Source: Candidatus Nomurabacteria bacterium (lineage in GTDB: Bacteria; Patescibacteriota; Minisyncoccia; Phycocordibacterales; UBA9973). From it: 44,287 nt of DNA. The notes below the pieces were generated by a model. It was not told where the DNA came from. It saw only the letters and a program-made list of their open reading frames with translations, and did no database searches. A program made the translations under genes and the position numbers. Numbering within the stretch: the first letter of the stretch is position 1; each line of letters opens with the position of its first letter. Of this stretch, positions 32,164 to 44,287 are shown piece by piece. The DNA lies in assembly GCA_943350875.1 (NCBI GenBank), contig CALRAL010000002.1, forward strand, positions 134,221-178,507, read 5' to 3'.

Positions 32164-32464
32164 GTTCTTTATCGGATAGTTGCTCTCTGGCTTCGACTAG
32201 AGGGAGGAAAGTCCGAACACAGACTCCGACTTTGGTCGGAGAAGAGTAGCAGGTAACGCCTGCCGACAGTGATGTCGAGTTGCGAACAGTGACGAACCGA
32301 TTTAGTTCGGGTGAAACGGCTAAATACTTACTTCTGTGCAAGATCGTGCTCCGACGTATATCGGAGAGAATCGCTTGATCCGTCTGGTAACAGACGAGAC
32401 AGATAAATAACTATCGTCTTTTGCGAAAGCAAAAAATACAGAATTCGGCTTATAGATAGAGAAC
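32164..32464 (+). ncRNA. rnpB: RNase P RNA
   Basis: GAGGAAAGTCCG near the 5' end and ACAGAATTCGGCTTAT near the 3' end (P4); terminal pairing GTTCTTTATC/GATAGAGAAC; promoter TTGCTA-17-TATAAT at 32129-32157. Confidence 0.93.
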
Positions 32465-32472
32465 AAAAATAT

Positions 32473-32691: not shown

Positions 32692-34662
32692 ATGATTTCA
32701 CAAAATCGAAAGTTATTTTTTTATAGTGTTTTTTTGTTGTTATTTTTAATACCAGGAAAATTTATTTTCTCTGTGGGTTTACCTTTACCTTTAGGATATG
32801 GAACTATCGATGGGACAAATGGTCAGGCTCTTACCCAAGATAATATAGAAGCTGACTTTTCTTGCGCTCAATGTGATGTCAAAGTTTATAATGATAAATT
32901 AACTGGTAGATTCTATCTTCCAGTAAACGGTGGTGGTTTTGTTGAACTTCATTCTTCAGATGATTCTTGGGGAGTTTTAAATGATGGTGAGGGTGTCTTA
33001 GATGGTATTGCTTACAGTACCACTTTGGGCCCAATTCTTTTTAGTTCTGATGTAAATCCGAATATAGCTGTTACCATTAATCCTACCAACGGAGAATTTA
33101 GTGGATATGCTTACAATGCTATTGTAGGTCCGATAAGGTTTGAATGTCCAGGTATGGCTTGCGTAAAGACTACTTGGCGCAAGATTGTCTTGCCTGTCCC
33201 AGTGAATGGTGCATGTGGTACAGCTGAGAAAACTTATCCAGCTTCTAGTACTAGCTATGGTACAGATACTTTTTGTACGTCTGGTGACAATCCTATACCA
33301 AATCCAACTTTTCCGACTTCTGATAATCCTTCAGCTTGGACTTGTGGAGGGCAGAATGGAGGTATTGCTGATTATTGTACAGCTCGATTGGAAGCTGTCA
33401 TTCATGAAAAAAATGAATGTGTAGCTTCATCCACTGAGTCTTGTAATAGTTCTCCAAATATTTGCGGTAAAATAAATTCTGGTAATAAAACTTGTAGCTC
33501 TTTAGGGCATTGGGGAGCTTGTACTGCAGTCACGCCTAGTGATGATCTGTGTACACTAGAACAAGTCGCTGTAGAACAAGAAAGATTGGCAGATTTACCT
33601 ATCCCACCAGAAAGTACTATTTCAGACTCAATCAAAACAGTTTTGCCAGATGAAGTCGCTTCCCAAATCATAGATGTTGTGAACCACCCTACCACTAACA
33701 CTGTTTCTACTTCTGTATCAGTGGTAGGTCTAGCTATCGGTTCCTCATCTTCTGCTACAGCTGTATTGTCTGTCGCTCCGACTGTGTCGAATTTCTTTGT
33801 CTTACCTATGCAACTTTGGAATTTACTCTTGAGCTTTTTAGGTATTAGAAAAAAGGGTAAGAAATGGGGAACTGTTTATGATTCCGTGACGATGCAACCC
33901 CTCGATCCTGTATATGTTGTTTTGAAAGATTTGCAAGGTAAAGAAATAGCGACTTCTATAACTGATCTAGATGGTCGTTATGGTTTTTCCGTCAAACCAG
34001 GAACTTATAAGATATCTGTAAATAAAGCGGATTATACTTTCCCTTCACAAAAGCTGGCTGGTCAGACCGAAGATGCTATTTACCATGATTTGTATTTCGG
34101 GGAGGATATAGTTGTGGGAGAAGAAGGAGGAGTGATAACAAAAAATATCCCAATGGACAGACTTAATTTTAACTGGAATGAATGGAAGAAGAATGAGCAA
34201 GGCCTTATGAAATTCTATAAATCTCGCGATAAATGGATTGCTAGGATTTCAAACTTCTTATTTATCTTTGGTTTCATGTTTACTCTTGGAAGCTTTGCAT
34301 TTAAACAAGTATTATTTAATTACATTATTCTAATTTTTTATATTTTTATTTCACTTGTCAGAAATATTAGTATTTTGAAAGTTAAAAAATCTGGTTCAGT
34401 TGTAGGGCTTGATGGCAACCCACTTTCTTTTGCTATTTTGAGATTTTATTCAGTAGCTATGCCGAACAATGAATTTGCCCATAGTATTAGTGATAAATTT
34501 GGACGTTTTTATAGACTTTTGCCAAATGGTGAATATATTGTGAAAATAGAGGAGAAAACAGGTGAAAACACTTACAGTATAGTCTTTACTTCAGGACCTA
34601 TCAAAGTGACGGAGGGTCTAATAAAGGATGACTTTAAGATTAATTTAGGGAAAAGTGGATAA
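32692..34662 (+). CDS. Multidomain surface/membrane protein with Cys-rich repeats and carboxypeptidase-regulatory-like domains
   Basis: Signal peptide, G(I/Y)AY..GPI.F repeats, VNGACG Cys-rich module, WGTVYDS...TDLDGRYGF...PGTY, TM pair. Confidence 0.75.
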   Translation: MISQNRKLFFYSVFLLLFLIPGKFIFSVGLPLPLGYGTIDGTNGQALTQDNIEADFSCAQCDVKVYNDKLTGRFYLPVNGGGFVELHSSDDSWGVLNDGEGVLDGIAYSTTLGPILFSSDVNPNIAVTINPTNGEFSGYAYNAIVGPIRFECPGMACVKTTWRKIVLPVPVNGACGTAEKTYPASSTSYGTDTFCTSGDNPIPNPTFPTSDNPSAWTCGGQNGGIADYCTARLEAVIHEKNECVASSTESCNSSPNICGKINSGNKTCSSLGHWGACTAVTPSDDLCTLEQVAVEQERLADLPIPPESTISDSIKTVLPDEVASQIIDVVNHPTTNTVSTSVSVVGLAIGSSSSATAVLSVAPTVSNFFVLPMQLWNLLLSFLGIRKKGKKWGTVYDSVTMQPLDPVYVVLKDLQGKEIATSITDLDGRYGFSVKPGTYKISVNKADYTFPSQKLAGQTEDAIYHDLYFGEDIVVGEEGGVITKNIPMDRLNFNWNEWKKNEQGLMKFYKSRDKWIARISNFLFIFGFMFTLGSFAFKQVLFNYIILIFYIFISLVRNISILKVKKSGSVVGLDGNPLSFAILRFYSVAMPNNEFAHSISDKFGRFYRLLPNGEYIVKIEEKTGENTYSIVFTSGPIKVTEGLIKDDFKINLGKSG

Positions 34663-34724: not shown

Positions 34725-35771
34725 ATGTATCAACACATGTTCAACAAACATACAGTCATGTCATTTCTAGCATTATTAATAGCTCTGGGTTCTATTTTAT
34801 ATACTTCTACTGTCATAAGTGCAAGCAAGGCTGCTACTCCGAACTGTACTTATCCGGTCGGCACTTTACCTAGTGCTATAGACTCTAGATGTAATTGGAG
34901 TGATGTTAAAATAGGAACTAGTTCTACTGGCTTGGTACTTGGTTCTCCTGTTGGTACTTCGACTGGCTTTCAGGATAGGATTTTTGATGTCAATACTCGT
35001 GGTGTAAAATCTGATATAACCGGTTCTGTTATACACCTTGGGAAAGATGCTAGTGCTATTGTTAATGCCAATTTTAAATTTAATTCATCAAAAAATATAC
35101 TTTCTGTTTTAGGTAATATTTCTTCTGATTCTGCTCTTGCGACTTCAATAACTAGTGACAATACAACTATTGTTGCTGGATCGGCTAGCTTTTTGCTCGG
35201 AGGTATTAGTGATGTGAATCCAACTGGTTGGAAAATATCAACTGGAGGGAGTTCTGATGGTTTAGGTAATTTATCAATTCAAAAATTACAAGATGGGAGT
35301 AGCACTTTTGTTTTCTCAAAGAATGGTAATCTACTTTTAGACAGTTTAAGTGCAAACTTGGTGACATCTCCAAAGTTCTGTTTTGGCCCAGGGGATTGTT
35401 TTTCTAAATTACCTACTGCTGACTCTAGTGCCCCAACCGGCGATATTAATGTTTCAACTGTGACTGTTGAGAGATTGTGTTTTAAAAATAGTGGAGATTG
35501 TATCTCATCTGTACCTACTTCTAGCTCTGGTGGCTCTGGCTCAGATTATATAACTAAGATTAACAGTTATTTTAGAAGTATTGATGGCATAAAAGAATAT
35601 ATTGCATCTTTAGAAAAAGATGGGAATTATCCTTCAAATGTGGATACTATCAAGTCTTATATAAAAGGTTTGCCAGATACTACAACTTACAAGGATTTTG
35701 TCGGTAGTATAGATAATTTTGAAAATAATTACAATACTGTCCGAGATGCTCTTTGGTCTATTTATCCTTAA
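34725..35771 (+). CDS. Secreted Ser/Gly-rich hypothetical protein
   Basis: Signal peptide; two CF..GDC.S repeats. Confidence 0.7.
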   Translation: MYQHMFNKHTVMSFLALLIALGSILYTSTVISASKAATPNCTYPVGTLPSAIDSRCNWSDVKIGTSSTGLVLGSPVGTSTGFQDRIFDVNTRGVKSDITGSVIHLGKDASAIVNANFKFNSSKNILSVLGNISSDSALATSITSDNTTIVAGSASFLLGGISDVNPTGWKISTGGSSDGLGNLSIQKLQDGSSTFVFSKNGNLLLDSLSANLVTSPKFCFGPGDCFSKLPTADSSAPTGDINVSTVTVERLCFKNSGDCISSVPTSSSGGSGSDYITKINSYFRSIDGIKEYIASLEKDGNYPSNVDTIKSYIKGLPDTTTYKDFVGSIDNFENNYNTVRDALWSIYP

Positions 35772-35825
35772 TGATACAAATCATATTGCATTTTTACTAA
35801 AATGAGATAGAATGGTTCTATCTCT

Positions 35826-35898
35826 GGGCCGTTAGCTCATCTGGTAGAGCACCTCATTTGCAATGAGGGGGTGGCAGGTTCGAGTCCTGTACGGTCCA
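35826..35898 (+). tRNA. tRNA-Ala(TGC)
   Basis: GGGCCGTTAGCTCATCTGGTAGAGCA CCTCA-TTTGCAA-TGAGG GGGTGGCAGGTTCGAGTCCTGTACGGTCCA; G3:U70 identity pair. Confidence 0.97.
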
Positions 35899-37398
35899 CC
35901 CGATTGAATTTCCCCGCGAAAATGCGTCCGCGCTCCGCGCGGTGATGGGAAGTTCGGCAAGAAAAGAAAAGGGCGTTTTGAAATCCACGGAGAGTGCGCC
36001 TGCGCGCAAATGGCGGTTCGAGCCGATGGTTTTCAAAAAAGTTTTCATTTCCTCAAACTTTTTTGAAGAAGCGAGATTTTGTGCTTGGTTGGCTTGCAAA
36101 ATCCAGTTTCGCACGAGTTCGAGCCAATGATTTCCTTTTCGCTCAAAATCAGATAATTTTTCCTCCAGCGTTTTCTTTTCAGACATCAAAGCGTTCTTTT
36201 TCTGTTGAAACTCCGACAACTCAAAACCGCCGTCCAAGTATCCGTCCATGAGGCGGTCAATCTTTGCTTTGATGTCAGAAATAGAAAAACGCAGATTTTG
36301 AGCGAAAACTCCCGATGATTGGCTGTTTTCACTTTCCCACTCGGCGAGCTTGCCGAGATATTTGTCCCGCCATTCATCGGGTAAAGAAACCTTTTGACAA
36401 AGTTCTTGCACTTGTCGTTCAAATTCTTCTTCCCGCAAAAATTTATTTTCAGAACATTTAGTAATTTTGCTCTTGTGGGTGCAACGATAATAGATAAACT
36501 GCAAACCGCTTTTCTTGATATGTCGCTCGGCGGTTATCGCATAGCCACATTCCCCACAAGTAGCAAAATTGAGAAACTGAAAATTCTTTTTCTTTTGATT
36601 TTTGCGGGGTTTTCCATTTGCGACAAGTGCTTCCTGTATCTTGTCAAAAGTTTTCTTTGAAATCATTGGCTTGTGCGAACCCTGATGCACTTCGCCTCGG
36701 TAAGAAAAATATCCATAGTAAAAAGGATTTTTCAAAATATGTTCTACCGAGGCGAGTGCGAAAGGTTTGCCAGATCGTGCGCCAACCAAGCCAAGAGAAA
36801 ACATTTTGCGTTGAATCGCCGTGAGTGTATATTCGCCAGTGCTAAAAAGCTCCAATATCTCTTTTACTTTACGAAATGTCTTTTTGTTAGGTTCAATCGT
36901 ACGAAGTCTCGGTTCGTTAAAATAACCGATTGGAGCTTTTGCCGATAATTCACCACGGCGTATCTTTTGCCGTATTCCACGCAAAATGTTTTCTCTTAAA
37001 TTGTCGGTGTAATATTTTGCTTGTCCGAAAGCGACACTCAACATGAATTTTCCTTGTGGTGTCGCTTCGAACCAAAATGTCGGGAATTTTAGCGCAACAA
37101 TTTTTAGTGTATCCACAAAATATATGACCTTGCCACCGTCAATGCTATTTCTCGCCAAACGATCTGGATTCCACGCTAAAATTCCCGAGGCAGAACCTTT
37201 TTCAATTTCGCCAAGCATTTCGTTAAATATCTCACGACCAGGCTCTTTTGCCGTCTTACTTTCGTAATACTCACGAACGATAAATAATCCCTGTTGCTTG
37301 GCGTATTCCCGAAGCTCCGTCAATTGAGCCTCAATACTCAAAACTTGGCGTTCTTCATCTTCACTTGATTTTCTACAATAAATAAAATATTTGATCAT
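35854..37398 (-). CDS. Large serine recombinase (integrase)
   Basis: YCRKSSE catalytic Ser, DRLARN, recombinase domain (APIGY, ILKNPFYYG, HKPMIS), zinc ribbon CGECG...YYRC, coiled coil; the last codons are antisense to the tRNA. Confidence 0.95.
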   Translation of the reverse strand: MIKYFIYCRKSSEDEERQVLSIEAQLTELREYAKQQGLFIVREYYESKTAKEPGREIFNEMLGEIEKGSASGILAWNPDRLARNSIDGGKVIYFVDTLKIVALKFPTFWFEATPQGKFMLSVAFGQAKYYTDNLRENILRGIRQKIRRGELSAKAPIGYFNEPRLRTIEPNKKTFRKVKEILELFSTGEYTLTAIQRKMFSLGLVGARSGKPFALASVEHILKNPFYYGYFSYRGEVHQGSHKPMISKKTFDKIQEALVANGKPRKNQKKKNFQFLNFATCGECGYAITAERHIKKSGLQFIYYRCTHKSKITKCSENKFLREEEFERQVQELCQKVSLPDEWRDKYLGKLAEWESENSQSSGVFAQNLRFSISDIKAKIDRLMDGYLDGGFELSEFQQKKNALMSEKKTLEEKLSDFERKGNHWLELVRNWILQANQAQNLASSKKFEEMKTFLKTIGSNRHLRAGALSVDFKTPFSFLAELPITARSADAFSRGNSIGWTVQDSNLPPPHCK

Positions 37399-37449: not shown

Positions 37450-37683
37450 AAATCTCGCTTCCCATCGGCTCCTGCGGTATTCCGCAGAATGAGCTTTAGC
37501 TCATAGAACCGCCATTTGCGCGCAAGCACGCTCTCTGTGGATTTCAAAACGCCCTTTTCTTTTCTTGCCGAACTTCCCATCACCGCGCGGAGCGCGGACG
37601 CATTTTCGCGGGGAAATTCAATCGGGTGGTGTGTCATTAACAAAGTCCGAACCTATTACGAACAAAATCCTGATGCCGACTAA
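37450..37683 (+). pseudogene. Inverted, decayed 3' fragment of the integrase including an uncut attP
   Basis: 37506-37629 is the reverse complement of 35896-36019 with about 4 substitutions. It continues ...GNSIGW-CVINKVRTYYEQNPDAD*. Upstream there is a deletion and a 34-bp insertion relative to the integrase. Confidence 0.8.
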
Positions 37684-37737
37684 TCGCACGCTCCGCGTGC
37701 GTGGTGGCTCGGAACTACCTCGTACGCTCTAAACAAT

Positions 37738-37887
37738 GGACTCGGTTTTGCGGAAGCAATTTTCTGGGGATATGGTTTCCGCAAAACCTCGGCTACTTTC
37801 GGATTTCGCAAGCGGAGGAGGAGGGGTCTGGGGAGGAATCCTCCGCTTGCTCCATCCGTTTTCTTTTGGCGAAATTCGGGGCGGACA
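37738..37887 (+). repeat. 150-bp structured inverted repeat, left copy
   Basis: Reverse complement of 43970-44119; internal hairpins GGTTTTGCGGAA/TTCCGCAAAACC and GCAAGCGGAGGA/TCCTCCGCTTGC. Confidence 0.9.
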
Positions 37888-37894
37888 TCACCCT

Positions 37895-37945
37895 ATTACA
37901 TTATACTATAATATTGGTGTATAATGTAATTGTTAATGCTATAAT
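37895..37945 (+). promoter_or_regulatory. Candidate operator plus -10 box for the cargo operon
   Basis: ATTACATTATAC-N12-GTATAATGTAAT perfect inverted repeat; TGcTATAAT 7 nt before ATG 37953. Confidence 0.6.
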
Positions 37946-37952
37946 GTGGATT

Positions 37953-38159
37953 ATGAAAAGTGAATCTGCGAAATTAGGCAAGAATTTAAAGCGTATCCGA
38001 ACAGAGAAAGGCATTACACAGGGCGATATTGTTCGAAATCTCGGCGTTAGCCGAAGTTTTATAAGCAATATTGAGAATGGGAAGACAAACCCAACACTTT
38101 CAACCATTACTAGTATTGCCAAAGCGCTTGGTGTTTCGAGCGATGAATTGCTAAAATAG
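37953..38159 (+). CDS. XRE-family HTH regulator (controller-protein-like)
   Basis: LGKNLKRIRTEKGITQ...SRSFISNIENGKTNPTLSTI...ALGV. Start MKSESAK; the ORF-track extension lies in the repeat. Confidence 0.9.
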   Translation: MKSESAKLGKNLKRIRTEKGITQGDIVRNLGVSRSFISNIENGKTNPTLSTITSIAKALGVSSDELLK

Positions 38160-38165
38160 AGACAT

Positions 38166-39485
38166 ATGCTTACCTTAGATACAAGAAAAATAATGAAAAC
38201 CTTTGTATCACTTAAACCGGAAGCGGTTTGGTCTTTTAAAAATGTTGCTCGATCGGAAACCACCGCTTTAACTCACAGCTATCACAGATACCCTGCAAAA
38301 TTTATTCCCAATATTGTAGAAAAGCTACTTAACGATTTTACAAAAAAGGGCGATTTAATACTTGATCCTTTTGGAGGATGTGGAACAACACTTGTAGAAT
38401 CAAAGAGGCTCGGACGAAGAAGTGTTTGTTTTGACATAAATCCAGTGGCTAAATTTATCGCCGAAGTAAAAGTAACTCCAATCAATCCAACAAAATTAAA
38501 TAGTGAGTTTGAAAAGTTACAGAGTAGACTTTCAAAAAAGAAAAAAGTTGTTTCAAATTACCACTTAAATAACGACAGAATACTCTATTGGTTCGATAAA
38601 AAAACGATTAAAGAATTAGATTTTGTCTATTCTGAAATCAAGAAAATAAAAAATAAAGACATAAGAAAATTTTTCTTGTGTGCTTTCTCGCATAACTTAA
38701 AAAATAGCTCTCGTTGGCTAATGAAAAGCATTAAGCCTACGATTGATAAAGATAAAAATATTCCATCTGTCGTAAAAAATCTTCTTAAGCATTCAAGATC
38801 AATGATTAAAAAGAACACTCAATTTTATTCATTGCTTAAAACGGAGGGTAATCTGAAAACTTCGGCAAAAGTGTTGCTTAGGGACTCAACAAAAAAGTTT
38901 TCCCTTAAAAATAATGAGGTTGATTTGATTATCACTTCTCCCCCCTATGTAACTTCCTATGAATATGCCGATCTGCATCAGCTTTCCTTGCTTTGGTTTG
39001 GCAACGACAAAAAAGACTTCAAGGGATGGTATAAATTTTCAAGCAATTTTACTGATTTTCGAAAAAACTTTATTGGCACAAGTTATAAGAATAAACAGAA
39101 AGGAGAAATCGGGAGTCAAATTGGCTCAAATATTACCGACAATCTTTACAGTTTGGACAAAGCACTCTCAAAAGATGTTTCAAATTATTTTATTGATATG
39201 AATTTAGCATTTAGAGAAATGCACCGCGTTTTGAAAAAAGGTAAACATGCCTGTATCGTGATTGGTAACACAGAGCTTAGGGGGGTTGCAATACTAAACG
39301 CAGAAGTAGCAACAGAACAAATGCTCAAGGTTGGTTTTAAGAATCCTCGCATAATTAAAAGAGAAGTTGGAAATAAAATGATTACCCCTTGGCGAGATAC
39401 TAATACAGGAAAATTTACCAGTATGAGGAACCCAAACAAGAAACATGCTTATGAATATGAGTATGTTCTCATAATGGAAAAATAA
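38166..39485 (+). CDS. Amino-DNA methyltransferase (probably N4-cytosine)
   Basis: YHRYPAKF, motif I DPFGGCGTT before motif IV TSPPY. Confidence 0.9.
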   Translation: MLTLDTRKIMKTFVSLKPEAVWSFKNVARSETTALTHSYHRYPAKFIPNIVEKLLNDFTKKGDLILDPFGGCGTTLVESKRLGRRSVCFDINPVAKFIAEVKVTPINPTKLNSEFEKLQSRLSKKKKVVSNYHLNNDRILYWFDKKTIKELDFVYSEIKKIKNKDIRKFFLCAFSHNLKNSSRWLMKSIKPTIDKDKNIPSVVKNLLKHSRSMIKKNTQFYSLLKTEGNLKTSAKVLLRDSTKKFSLKNNEVDLIITSPPYVTSYEYADLHQLSLLWFGNDKKDFKGWYKFSSNFTDFRKNFIGTSYKNKQKGEIGSQIGSNITDNLYSLDKALSKDVSNYFIDMNLAFREMHRVLKKGKHACIVIGNTELRGVAILNAEVATEQMLKVGFKNPRIIKREVGNKMITPWRDTNTGKFTSMRNPNKKHAYEYEYVLIMEK

Positions 39486-39488
39486 TTT

Positions 39489-41348
39489 ATGCCAAATTTT
39501 AACCTAAATGAATTAAGACGAGATACTATAAATAATAATCGCTATGAAAGGCGTTTGGCTAAACTTGTCTCAATGAATCAGGAAGTAGACAGGATTAAGG
39601 CTGTTGTGGAAAGTGCGGTTGATAATACTCAAAAAGGACAAAAGTCTTTTGTTATTTATGGTGAACCGCAAAGCGGAAAGACAGAAATGATGATTGCTTT
39701 AACAGCAAAACTCCTTGATGTTGGTTTTAAGATTGTGATTGCCTTGCTTAATGATAGTGTCCAACTTTTGGGACAAAACCTCGAGCGTTTTCAACGATCA
39801 GGTCTTTCTCCTTCTCCAAAAAAGTTTAGTGAAATTCTGCCGCCCGAAGTAAAAATTGGAGATCATCAATGGGTTATTTTTTGTAAGAAAAATTCAAAAG
39901 ACCTACATAAACTTATTCAAAAGCTAGATGGACACTCTAATAGAGTAGTAATTGATGATGAAGCTGATTATGCAACACCAAACTCAAAAATAAACAAAAA
40001 AGAGAAGAGTAAGATAAATGAACTAACAGAAAAATTGATTGGTTCGGAAGGTACTTATATCGGTGTTACAGCAACACCCGCTCGTCTTGATTTAAACAAA
40101 ACTCATCAAAATCAAAATGAGTTTTGGATTGATTTTCAGCCACATTCAAATTATACAGGGCAGGACATATTCTTTCCTGTTTCGACAGAAAATTTACCAT
40201 ATAGGCTAACTTTTTTACCGGACGCAGGCGATAACCCAAAACATTTACGAGAAGCATTGTTTAGCTTCATAGTAAATGTGGGATATTTAAACTCTGTTGT
40301 TAATGATCCAGAAAAGAATTACTCCATGCTTGTTCATACAAGTAGCAAAAAAGCTGACCATACAGTTGACTATAAACAAATTGTTAAAACTTTTGAAGTC
40401 TTAAAAGACGATAAAGATTCAAACCACGAAGCATACTTTAAAAGAATATGGGAAATTGCCAGTGCAAGGTACCCAGAACATGCAAATGAAATAACGAAAT
40501 ATGCTATTGGTCATATAGACAGAAATAACATTGTTGTAATGAATAGCGATAAAGAAGTAAACGCGGCAGATAATCGAACAGCGACTGATCCCACTGCTCC
40601 CTTTACTGTAGTTATTGGTGGAAATATTATTTCCCGAGGAGTTACCTTTAATAATCTTTTGTCTATGTTCTTTACGAGAGATGTTAAACATAAATTACAA
40701 CAAGATACTTATATTCAAAGAGCTAGAATGTTTGGTTCACGAAATGATTACTTAAAGTATTTTGAGTTAATAATTCCTAAATCGCTTTATTTGGATTGGC
40801 AAAAATGTTTTATTTTCCATAGATTATCTCTTGAATCAAGAAAGCAAGATAAACGAACGCCTGTCTGGCTTGATGGCGAAAGGATTACTGCTGTTTCTGC
40901 GGGTAGTATTGATAAAACAAATGTCGTCGTAGACAAGGGTGAAATGAGCTTTGAACTTTTCAATTTTGATAATGAAAATATTGAAGAAATTCTCAAGCAA
41001 AATATAAAACCAATTCAAAAAGTAAAAGCACTTTCCGAACTATTTGGGAAAAACTGCCTGCCTGATTATTTAATTAGTTATATAGAGGGATTTTGTCCAC
41101 TTGGCGATGAGTCTTTGGCGGTACACTCTCCAAAAACTATATCCGGATACACAGAAAAAGAGGGAGAAATGGATAAAAATACTATTACTCGTGCGAAAGG
41201 GTTTATTGGGGACAGAGAAATGGAATTAACAAAATATCCAAACGCAATCCATCACATCAATATTCTTTTTAACGATATAGGGAAAGCTCGCATTTTCTAC
41301 AGATACAGAGGCAGTATTCGTTTCTTAAAAACTCCTAGAAATATATGA
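39489..41348 (+). CDS. Z1-domain protein with an SF2-like ATPase N-terminus
   Basis: GEPQSGKT (Walker A), IDDEAD, GVTATP, SMLVHTS, IGGNIISRGVTF, DTYIQRARMFG. Confidence 0.82.
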   Translation: MPNFNLNELRRDTINNNRYERRLAKLVSMNQEVDRIKAVVESAVDNTQKGQKSFVIYGEPQSGKTEMMIALTAKLLDVGFKIVIALLNDSVQLLGQNLERFQRSGLSPSPKKFSEILPPEVKIGDHQWVIFCKKNSKDLHKLIQKLDGHSNRVVIDDEADYATPNSKINKKEKSKINELTEKLIGSEGTYIGVTATPARLDLNKTHQNQNEFWIDFQPHSNYTGQDIFFPVSTENLPYRLTFLPDAGDNPKHLREALFSFIVNVGYLNSVVNDPEKNYSMLVHTSSKKADHTVDYKQIVKTFEVLKDDKDSNHEAYFKRIWEIASARYPEHANEITKYAIGHIDRNNIVVMNSDKEVNAADNRTATDPTAPFTVVIGGNIISRGVTFNNLLSMFFTRDVKHKLQQDTYIQRARMFGSRNDYLKYFELIIPKSLYLDWQKCFIFHRLSLESRKQDKRTPVWLDGERITAVSAGSIDKTNVVVDKGEMSFELFNFDNENIEEILKQNIKPIQKVKALSELFGKNCLPDYLISYIEGFCPLGDESLAVHSPKTISGYTEKEGEMDKNTITRAKGFIGDREMELTKYPNAIHHINILFNDIGKARIFYRYRGSIRFLKTPRNI

Positions 41349-41836
41349 TCAGAGAATTTGAATTTTACCACGGAGCTGTTTTAGCAAAATTGCTCCATGA
41401 ATCAGGGCAAAGCGTAACGATTGAACCCTTTCCAAGTGAAAGTAACGCCTCTTATGTCGTTAATAAAAATATTGGTCTTTTTATCAAGCATTCAGCTAAA
41501 AGAATGTCACCTTGGAGATTTAGCTTTGCACAAGAACATCAGGACGAGATTTTAGAAATGAAAAATAAGTTAGGCGAGGTATTTTTATTATTAGTTTGTG
41601 GAGAAGATGGAATTGTATCTTTGAGTTTTGAAGAATTAAAAAGTCTACTTAATGAAGCCCATGACCCAGTAGAGTGGATAAGTGTTGCTAGAAATAAAAA
41701 TACCCACTACACAGTAAAAGGTTCTGATGGCGATCTCGGATACAAAATTAGCCACAAGGATTTTCCAAGAAAACTATTTGAAAAAGAAATTGTAAGTCCA
41801 GAGAAAAGAAGTAAGGTTTTTTCTTGGTTTAAATAA
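41345..41836 (+). CDS. Hypothetical protein, possible PD-(D/E)XK-like nuclease
   Basis: ATGA overlap with the Z1 gene; alpha/beta pattern with LFIKHS...PWRFSF. Function inferred from context only. Confidence 0.6.
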   Translation: MIREFEFYHGAVLAKLLHESGQSVTIEPFPSESNASYVVNKNIGLFIKHSAKRMSPWRFSFAQEHQDEILEMKNKLGEVFLLLVCGEDGIVSLSFEELKSLLNEAHDPVEWISVARNKNTHYTVKGSDGDLGYKISHKDFPRKLFEKEIVSPEKRSKVFSWFK

Positions 41837-41843
41837 AAATATT

Positions 41844-42281
41844 ATGAAAATCTACGTCCTTGGAAGCACATATTTTATGAAAGAGATGGTTGAAGCAAAG
41901 AACAAGCTTTGTGAGCTTGGAATTGATGGTTGGATTCACCCACACTACGAAGCCTTTGTCCGTGGTGAGAAAAAAGAACATCTTGCTCGATGGAATAATG
42001 GCGAAAAAGCCGCATTAAAAAGAGAAAACAATTATCTCAAAGTTCACTACAAACATATTCTTGAAAGTGACGCAGTTTTAATAGTGAATATCAAGAAAAA
42101 TGGCAAGGACAATTATATCGGTGGAAATGTGCTTATAGAAATGGGCCAAGCTTTTGTGAATGATAAGAAAATATTTTTGACCAACAGTATTCCAACAGAT
42201 AGTCCGTATGCTGATGAGATTATTTCTATGGACCCGATTTGTCTTGAAGGTAAGTTGGAGAATATTAAAAAATATATATGA
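41844..42281 (+). CDS. Nucleoside 2-deoxyribosyltransferase-like protein
   Basis: KIYVLGS; ILESDAVLIVN; YIGGNVLIEMGQAFVNDKKIF. Confidence 0.7.
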   Translation: MKIYVLGSTYFMKEMVEAKNKLCELGIDGWIHPHYEAFVRGEKKEHLARWNNGEKAALKRENNYLKVHYKHILESDAVLIVNIKKNGKDNYIGGNVLIEMGQAFVNDKKIFLTNSIPTDSPYADEIISMDPICLEGKLENIKKYI

Positions 42282-42832
42282 AAAAAGAATTATTAGAAAT
42301 TATAAATGAAAATGATGAGGTAATTGGTCTCGAAACTCGTGAGAAAATTCACAAAGAGGGTCTTCTTCATCGCGAAATACATATTTGGTTTCTAACTCCT
42401 AAAGCAGAGATCGTTTTCCAACACCGAGCAAAAGATAAAGACACTTATCCGGACAAACTGGATGCTACGGTTGGTGGACATGTTGAGCCCAAAATGTCTT
42501 ATGAAGAAACTGCTGTTAAAGAATGCAAAGAAGAAACAGGAATGGACATTGATTTGAATAAACTTGTCTTTCTAAGAAAGATAAGAAAGAAAAGTTTTGA
42601 TGAAGCCACTGGTTTGACCAACAATACTATACGTAGTCAGTACGCTTATCTTTTTGACGGTTCAATAAACGATTTACAAGTTGAGGATGGCAAAGCAGAA
42701 GGTTTTGAAGCGTGGAAAATTGATGACCTTTCTCATCTTTCGGAAGCTGATAAAAATAAATTTATCCCTCTAATTCTTCGCGAAGATATGCTTGATATTT
42801 TTAATAAAGCGAGAGAAATTTTAATTAAATAA
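42278..42832 (+). CDS. Nudix hydrolase (IDI-like subgroup)
   Basis: HKEGLLHR, QHRAKDKDTYP, Nudix box GGHVEPKMSYEETAVKECKEETG. Confidence 0.9.
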   Translation: MKKELLEIINENDEVIGLETREKIHKEGLLHREIHIWFLTPKAEIVFQHRAKDKDTYPDKLDATVGGHVEPKMSYEETAVKECKEETGMDIDLNKLVFLRKIRKKSFDEATGLTNNTIRSQYAYLFDGSINDLQVEDGKAEGFEAWKIDDLSHLSEADKNKFIPLILREDMLDIFNKAREILIK

Positions 42833-42835
42833 TTT

Positions 42836-43432
42836 ATGGAATTTTTTACTATTAAAAACATAATAGGAATTGTCGCGATTGCTTTGACTTTTATTGGTTA
42901 TGCTCCATATTTTCGCGATTTATTAAAAGGTAAAACCAAGCCTCATATTTTTTCTTGGTTTATTTGGGCAATTGTTACTTCAATAATTTTTGCACTTCAA
43001 GTTAGCGCGGGTGCAGGACTTGGTTCCGTAGTAACACTTGCTGTTGCTGTAATTTCTTTGTCGATTTTTATTTTAGGATTTAAAAATGGAAATAAGATCA
43101 TAAAAAAGGTAGATGTTGTCTTTCTTGTTTTGGCTCTGCTCGCAATGCCGCTTTGGTTAGTGATTAAACAACCAGTTCTTTCAATAATTTTACTTTCTAC
43201 AATTGACATGCTCGGCTTTGCTCCAACAGTTAGAAAATCTTGGAATGCTCCGTATTCTGAAACATTATCTTTGTATACAATCACAACATTTCGCCATGGG
43301 TTAAGTATTGTTGCTCTTGCTAATTACAATATCGTTACACTATTATTTCCTAGCACATGGGTAATCGCAAATGCTTTGTTTTCAATAATGTTAATAATTA
43401 GGCGTAAGAAAATTCCTAATCCTAATCTGTAA
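42836..43432 (+). CDS. Multi-pass membrane protein (PQ-loop-like duplication)
   Basis: About 7 TM helices; APYFRDLLKGKTKPH and APTVRKSWNAPYSE half repeats. Confidence 0.75.
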   Translation: MEFFTIKNIIGIVAIALTFIGYAPYFRDLLKGKTKPHIFSWFIWAIVTSIIFALQVSAGAGLGSVVTLAVAVISLSIFILGFKNGNKIIKKVDVVFLVLALLAMPLWLVIKQPVLSIILLSTIDMLGFAPTVRKSWNAPYSETLSLYTITTFRHGLSIVALANYNIVTLLFPSTWVIANALFSIMLIIRRKKIPNPNL

Positions 43433-43969: not shown

Positions 43970-44119
43970 TGTCCGCCCCGAATTTCGCCAAAAGAAAACG
44001 GATGGAGCAAGCGGAGGATTCCTCCCCAGACCCCTCCTCCTCCGCTTGCGAAATCCGAAAGTAGCCGAGGTTTTGCGGAAACCATATCCCCAGAAAATTG
44101 CTTCCGCAAAACCGAGTCC
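43970..44119 (-). repeat. 150-bp structured inverted repeat, right copy
   Basis: Reverse complement of 37738-37887. Confidence 0.9.
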
Positions 44120-44200: not shown

Positions 44201-44287
44201 CGATTAGTCCGCATCAGGATTTTGTTCGTAATAGGTTCGGACTTTGTTAATGACACACCACCCGATTGAATTTCCCCGCGAAAATGC
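44201..44287 (-). other. attP-type junction and 3' end of a further integrase copy (truncated by the window)
   Basis: Minus strand encodes ...AFSRGNSIGWCVINKVRTYYEQNPDAD*; matches 37600-37686 with one substitution. Confidence 0.75.

Follow-up and report, generated by a model that had tools for sequence, protein, structure and literature searches.

Does a tight cluster of three genes close to the end of a patescibacterial contig encode a new kind of defence system, or a new version of a known one? The genes lie in a stretch of 44,287 nucleotides (the window) from Candidatus Nomurabacteria bacterium (assembly GCA_943350875.1, contig CALRAL010000002.1, positions 134,221 to 178,507 of the forward strand), which forms the end of contig C2 in a genome of 646,448 bases and 6 contigs that was rated 100% complete. 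They encode an amino-methyltransferase (M), a helicase-like ATPase (H) and a 163-residue protein (p163), and a first-pass annotation had suggested that this cassette was a new minimal defence system. According to the present analysis, it is most likely a variation on an already known class of ATP-dependent restriction systems and not a new category. More specifically, we consider it reasonably probable, by analogy, that the cassette is a CglI-like restriction-modification system that depends on ATP and has an Hjc-like nuclease where CglI has its PLD-B3 subunit.

According to the list of open reading frames (ORFs), four co-directional genes on the plus strand fill bases 37944-41836 of the window. 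The tight coupling of the last three, described in the first-pass annotation, was confirmed. The gene order is M-H-R, with p163 as the R candidate; M and H are separated by 3 nt (TAA-TTT-ATG), and H and p163 overlap by 4 nt (ATGA). DNA homology to four loci of Patescibacteria (75-92% identity) started at 38165-38273 and ended at 41782-41836. Therefore, it covered only the three genes and neither the helix-turn-helix (HTH) gene upstream nor the genes downstream. Together with the co-occurrence described below, these boundaries mark the trio as a genuine mobile unit that is conserved. The HTH gene, whose HTH_3 domain is the last 71 residues of an ORF ending at 38159, had been described as controller-like. 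It is present, and its product matched the PADLOC Control_protein model (7.5e-13) together with many further HTH models, but it was not conserved: it falls outside the stretch of homology common to relatives, and an upstream HTH ORF was found in only 2 of 22 loci, which were sampled from the 43 loci with the methyltransferase upstream (26 small upstream ORFs scanned). From this comparison, the HTH gene is local context and not a conserved component, though possibly a regulator of the cassette. A C-protein-controlled type II restriction-modification system was rejected as an explanation, since no conserved controller HTH gene was found.

The p163 family proved to be large. Relatives numbered 259 among 90%-identity clusters. 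At 50% identity, 824 clusters passed E<=0.001, with lengths almost always of 140-200 residues. The scan of species-representative genomes gave 107 p163 loci, and the best 80 of them were used as the locus set; a smaller set of 8 loci lies on contigs that are also among these. The loci nearest to the window came from metagenome-assembled genomes (MAGs) of Patescibacteria, and the cassette is spread over many bacterial phyla. Bacterial carriers of p163 ranged from Patescibacteria to Bradyrhizobium and Pelagibacteraceae, and one archaeal MAG (Pacearchaeota) carried it as well. The expected co-occurrence of the genes was borne out. A homologue of the SPPY methyltransferase of the window was found in 63 of the 80 loci, either upstream or downstream, and among 63 complete same-strand pairs of H and p163 the two genes overlapped by 1-17 nt in 58 and were 1-15 nt apart in 5. 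A methyltransferase was tightly linked in at least 66 of the 80 loci. The neighbours of the 17 loci with no SPPY-family homologue were examined, L077 and L078 standing outside this examination. L075 carried a C5 methylase (PF00145, 3.3e-81) in place of the SPPY enzyme and L066 a conventional PF01555 methylase on the opposite strand; L083 had a similar-looking ORF, which the family scan did not cover. L044, L050, L064 and L071 are short contigs, and the flanks of L038 and L042 end inside a GHKL gene. A GHKL (HATPase_c_3) gene adjoined the pair in 11 of the 80 loci, and 36 further flanking ORFs contained no recurrent partner or GHKL gene.

Conservation was compared in 55 complete systems (1,485 pairs). 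Median pairwise identity was higher for the restriction arm (58% and 47%, the latter for p163) than for the methyltransferase (31%). This asymmetry indicates that the motor-nuclease pair is a stable module onto which methyltransferases were exchanged. The flanks of the cassette differed among loci, with integrases and TIR, PLD, HsdR and toxin-antitoxin genes among them, and of 201 genomes in the taxonomic family of the source, 3 carried p163, the source genome counted. In these genomes, the spread is patchy, in the manner of accessory or defence genes. Among 2.9 million viral contigs there was one weak partial match, and the cassette was essentially absent.

The M protein matched PF01555 N6_N4_Mtase (2.9e-23) and, over its whole length, the PADLOC model MTase_II PDLC03322 (9.5e-55), in agreement with the TSPPY-type methylase named in the first-pass annotation. 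Its motif I lies ahead of motif IV. Solved beta-class methyltransferases were matched by the motif-I region only, which aligned to the C-terminal parts of those enzymes; therefore, M was considered to be a permuted form. SPP(Y/F) is a hallmark of N4-cytosine enzymes, and the specificity of M is probably N4-cytosine. The (T/S)SPPY motif was retained in 54 of the 55 complete systems, and motif I split them into two subfamilies (F-type 32, M-type 22, 1 unassigned). Homology of M to its relatives starts at residue 9 of the protein and at base 38228 of the DNA, and the true start of the gene may be 38193 instead of 38166.

The H protein matched PF10593 (1.8e-25), a family already listed as a restriction-modification marker in the available part of PMC7251935, and Pfam ResIII matched its N-core. 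Among PADLOC models, the best match was Helicase_II ('type II helicase domain protein'; 9.4e-45), over profile positions 25-496 of 621. Across 43 H sequences, the Walker A, DEAD-box and motif VI sites were invariant, as were D406, T407, I409 to G416 and R418. The AlphaFold model of residues 430-619 was confident at about 484-610 (block pLDDT, the predicted local distance difference test, 82-96). In this model, the C-terminal domain appears to have the fold solved for H.CglI (6f1s), a link of moderate strength and at the level of the fold only: Foldseek ranked the H.CglI match 22 with a non-significant E of 0.58, and PDB sequence and profile searches with H gave no match, including none to the solved H.CglI C-domain by phmmer or profile. 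H is proposed to be a helicase-like motor on double-stranded DNA with a CglI-type C-terminal DNA-binding domain.

For p163, no match was found in Pfam, PADLOC v2.0.0 or NCBIfam, a protein atlas search returned unnamed clusters only, and the sole family match was a PHROG of unknown function (phrog_28860, 1.6e-16). Searches of PDB sequences by phmmer and profile gave chance matches only. The AlphaFold model was confident (pLDDT 84.7; predicted template modelling score 0.83). VIA-align placed Hjc 2wcw_A at the top (10.2; root-mean-square deviation 3.0, 117 residues aligned), followed by the homing endonuclease I-Ssp6803I (2ost_A, 9.5) and Hjc 1gef_A (9.0), with RecU-related proteins, PvuII, NhoI and tRNA-splicing endonuclease chains in lower rows. 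All top Foldseek rows were Hjc, the best E being only 3.7e-3. The viral library gave weak resolvase and RecU rows, and Pfam RecU was weakly matched by 7 of 38 members of the p163 family (best 2.8e-4); a search of 31 related genomes for RecU found none. The secondary-structure order of p163 agreed almost one for one with that of Hjc. On the model, p163 has an Hjc-like fold of the PD-(D/E)XK (restriction-endonuclease) type, and K48 appears to sit at the canonical lysine, in a register taken from the order of the secondary-structure elements.

Conservation in p163 was counted in 118 cluster representatives. K48 and W57 were invariant (118/118 each), and G89 (115), P56 (114), R53 (111), R116 (110) and D88 (109) were highly conserved, followed by H9 (89), H65 (84), E68 (72) and E6 (61). 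E97 (77) and K99 (53) were less regular, and a D88...E97-x-K99 pattern was weak.

Several findings weigh against the CglI-like reading. Acidic residues are missing from the canonical acidic PD-(D/E)XK positions: the position two before K48 is Y or F in 98 of the 118 representatives, and the positions aligned with the Hjc aspartate hold S, G, N or R. Consequently, nuclease activity of p163 would need relocated ligands such as D88, E6 or E68. A separate DNA-recognition domain, which R.CglI possesses, is absent from p163. In addition, intact pairs were found at L074, L098 and L097 with no methyltransferase among the 13 ORFs of these loci scanned against Pfam (other ORFs there were unscanned), and the pair at L097 adjoins a complete type I system. 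Relocated acidic ligands are common in the PD-(D/E)XK superfamily, and D88 is a candidate for such a ligand. Thus, of the earlier suggestion that the 163-residue protein is a nuclease, the restriction-endonuclease-type fold was upheld by prediction and the canonical acidic site was not; p163 may be a nuclease with moved acidic ligands, or inactive.

The closest parallel was found in the CglI, NgoAVII and BceSIV systems, which likewise comprise three linked genes for a methyltransferase, a nuclease subunit and a DEAD-family ATPase. As described in the available parts of PMC5861437 and PMC4267653, R.CglI has 358 residues, with a PLD nuclease joined to a B3-like domain that reads GCCGC, and the R2H2 complex of CglI hydrolyses about 170 ATP per second to drive the translocation on double-stranded DNA that cleavage requires. 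The cassette differs in several respects. The nuclease subunits are unrelated, that of the cassette having 163 residues and a predicted Hjc-like PD-(D/E)XK fold without an extra domain; its methyltransferase is an SPPY amino-methyltransferase; its Walker A is canonical (GEPQSGKT), whereas that of H.CglI is described as unusual; and the motors are only distantly similar in sequence (151 bits for H against the PADLOC Helicase_II model). No PLD or B3 Pfam match was found in p163. Therefore, the cassette is not a member of the CglI family in the strict sense, although by analogy it probably works like one. Compared with the earlier claim of a new system, the cassette is novel as a variant and not as a category.

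In the proposed mechanism, the SPPY methyltransferase would mark host DNA, probably as N4-methylcytosine, and this methylation would protect it. p163, made by translational coupling to the motor and likely a dimer like Hjc, would serve as the nuclease subunit, a role that falls to the PLD-B3 R subunit in CglI. With H, it would form an H-R complex that loads on unmodified DNA, moves along it through ATP hydrolysis and then cuts it, and the cassette would thereby act against phages.

A second parallel is the group of systems described by Iyer in 2008. Its likeness to the cassette, in the available part of PMC2292703, includes a helicase with a DThhQXuRhFG motif, a small protein of the restriction-endonuclease fold, methylases and a sporadic, laterally mobile distribution. 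The species list of a figure there includes Candidatus Pelagibacter and Flavobacterium johnsoniae, and p163 loci occur in Pelagibacteraceae and other Flavobacterium species. In contrast to that group, a GHKL gene is absent from the window, the source genome and most loci, and the small protein described there has E-D-ExK motifs, whereas the only fully conserved lysine of p163 is K48. The 'NRE' of that paper is likely identical with the p163 family. Assignment to MZA (MzaABCDE) was rejected: H matched the PADLOC MzaC model with 7.5e-10, MzaC matches reached 35-38 bits (38.4 for NCBIfam NF041933) against a cut-off of 1,500, and no MutL-like/GHKL or AIPR gene was found. MANTIS/Gao_RL (bioRxiv 10.64898/2026.09.23.753747) is unrelated and, in the part available, merely cites the CglI papers.

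Other explanations were weighed against the CglI-like one. It is rather unlikely that the methylase directs the restriction arm by a type III-like logic. Type III systems also place a superfamily 2 motor and a PD-(D/E)XK-fold nuclease beside a methyltransferase, with an effector more conserved than the methylase, and ResIII matches the N-core of H; the better conservation of the restriction arm and the resemblance of p163, without a recognition domain, to structure-selective resolvases favour such a logic. On the other hand, the motor and the nuclease-fold protein are encoded by separate genes in the cassette, while Res is a single polypeptide, and M has motif I before motif IV with SPPY and is not a beta-class (D/N)PPY N6-adenine Mod. 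Binding between methylase and effector had no support from the cassette data, and no methylase with this order of motifs is known to us as a Mod subunit. The only locus that resembled an HsdR replacement, L097, has its own HsdR, and replacement there was ruled out. Within the CglI-like explanation, the question of specificity is divided similarly. A restriction arm with its own, largely fixed specificity, served by isospecific methyltransferases, is given a slightly better than even chance; it fits the CglI precedent and the pairing with unrelated methylase classes. Specificity supplied by the methyltransferase appears appreciably less likely; it fits the conservation asymmetry and the exchange of modules but needs a docking surface common to very different methylases. 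The small share left falls to other target read-outs.

It is improbable that p163 is a catalytically dead adaptor or DNA-binding subunit of PD-(D/E)XK fold, with harm done by an unlinked host nuclease or by the motor itself, which might displace proteins or stall replication. The family-wide loss of the canonical acidic positions would agree with this, as would the failure of hhalign to align anything of p163 with a canonical YraN-like PD-(D/E)XK protein from another genome, and some loci contain an additional nuclease candidate or ATPases (a BsaWI-like restriction endonuclease at L094 and the GHKL genes). Against it, K48 occupies the canonical lysine position in every representative; D88, R53, R116 and the frequent E6, H9, H65 and E68 would suit an active site whose ligands have moved; and most loci have no other linked nuclease gene, the 36 flanking ORFs giving no recurrent partner. 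Still less credit is given to a reading built on the Holliday-junction-resolvase fold and the adjoining recombinases. p163 does share its predicted fold with these resolvases, serine recombinases or integrases adjoin the pair in the window and several loci, and some pairs had no methyltransferase among the scanned neighbouring ORFs. p163 of the window has no significant sequence similarity to Hjc, RecU or I-Ssp6803I; of the E-D-E-K site of Hjc and RecU, the canonical Asp and Glu are replaced in p163; and its context is a restriction cassette and not recombination genes. The tight linkage of the methyltransferase, the moving unit of exactly three genes with no recombinase, the sporadic distribution and the motor, whose closest characterised relative is a restriction enzyme subunit, argue against this reading.

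Table 1. Positions of the cassette genes, their motifs and the mobile-element features in the window
Feature	Position	Strand	Details
HTH_3 (Xre/C-protein-like) gene	37944-38159	+	71 residues; PF01381 2.2e-17
M, amino-methyltransferase	38166-39485	+	439 residues; PF01555
M motif I, FGGCGTT	38370-38390	+	residues 69-75; S-adenosylmethionine binding
M motif IV, TSPPY	38934-38948	+	residues 257-261; catalytic
H, helicase-like ATPase/motor	39489-41348	+	619 residues; PF10593
H Walker A, GEPQSGKT	39660-39683	+	G58, P60, Q61, G63, K64, T65 invariant (43 sequences)
H Walker B/DEAD box, DDEAD	39954-39968	+	D156, D157, E158, D160 invariant (43 sequences)
H DTYIQRARMFG	40704-40736	+	residues 406-416; agrees with DThhQXuRhFG, a motif from Iyer 2008 (PMC2292703)
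H C-terminal domain	40935-41312	+	about residues 483-608; predicted H.CglI C-domain-like fold
p163, R candidate	41345-41836	+	163 residues; predicted Hjc/RecU-like PD-(D/E)XK fold; coupled translationally to H
p163 strand 3 and following loop, LFIKHSAKRMSPW	41477-41515	+	holds K48, S50, R53, P56, W57
p163 beta4-beta5 hairpin, CGEDG	41597-41611	+	D88-G89 near-invariant
tRNA-Ala	35825-35901		overlaps the 3' end of the serine recombinase gene
Large serine recombinase gene	35854-37398	-	
Inverted repeats, 124 nt	35896-36019 / 37506-37629		flank the recombinase gene
Longer inverted repeats	37600-37686 / 44201-44287; 37738-37887 / 43970-44119		99-100% complementary
Cassette-holding segment	37888-43969		6 kb; enclosed by the longer inverted repeats

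The surroundings of the cassette partly support its earlier description as lying on an integrative element. The tRNA-Ala gene, the serine recombinase gene and the inverted repeats are present (Table 1), and the end of contig C6 holds a second, 94%-identical copy of the module formed by the tRNA end and the recombinase. The cassette-holding segment may be an invertible or composite mobile segment. On the other side, no empty insertion site was found in the relatives examined, and the contig, like the window, terminates within the repeat. No empty site could be defined because Nudix orthologues of the genus were found in different genomic contexts. The reported absence of a recognisable type II restriction endonuclease, HsdS, MORC and AIPR agreed with the scan of eight neighbouring proteins, in which no match to the type II restriction endonuclease, HsdS, GHKL/MORC or AIPR families was found; PF13589 (HATPase_c_3) had zero matches across the whole genome.

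Past p163, after a gap of 7 nt, three co-directional genes follow (41844-43432). They encode a 145-residue protein without a family match, a Nudix hydrolase (PF00293, 2e-12) and a 198-residue membrane protein, the Nudix gene overlapping the 145-residue gene by ATGA. These genes were rejected as system components, being present in 0 of the 80 related loci. Farther upstream, a bacterial RNase P RNA of class A lies at 32164-32468 (112 bits, E 1.3e-33), and beyond it come two large proteins, at 32692-34662 and 34725-35771, which are probably secreted or located at the surface.

Some relatives of the cassette showed features of their own. In the Bacteroidota loci L038, L042, L043 and L065 (and L008), the cassette was expanded by one or two GHKL genes, and these loci also hold a protein of 449-471 residues without a family; in L038, L042 and L043, a 544-residue protein without a family lies directly 3' of p163. 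The records AP018212.1 (L119) and PQ789808.1 (L120) and 12 Ralstonia phage records hold distant relatives of p163 (27-30% identity), in three settings. One setting is the end of a Burkholderia phage genome, where the 6.6 kb examined had no annotated motor gene.

p163 defines a large family that has no Pfam, PADLOC or NCBIfam model. Because PADLOC v2.0.0 lacks a p163 model, its models picked up only a methylase and a 'helicase domain protein' here, and defence annotation tools probably under-count the cassette. It is unusual for a conserved effector to be paired with an exchangeable methylase, and this gives a direct way to test how such motor-driven enzymes get their specificity. Few defence systems in the tiny genomes of bacteria of the candidate phyla radiation have a mechanism that can be tested, and the cassette would be one of them.

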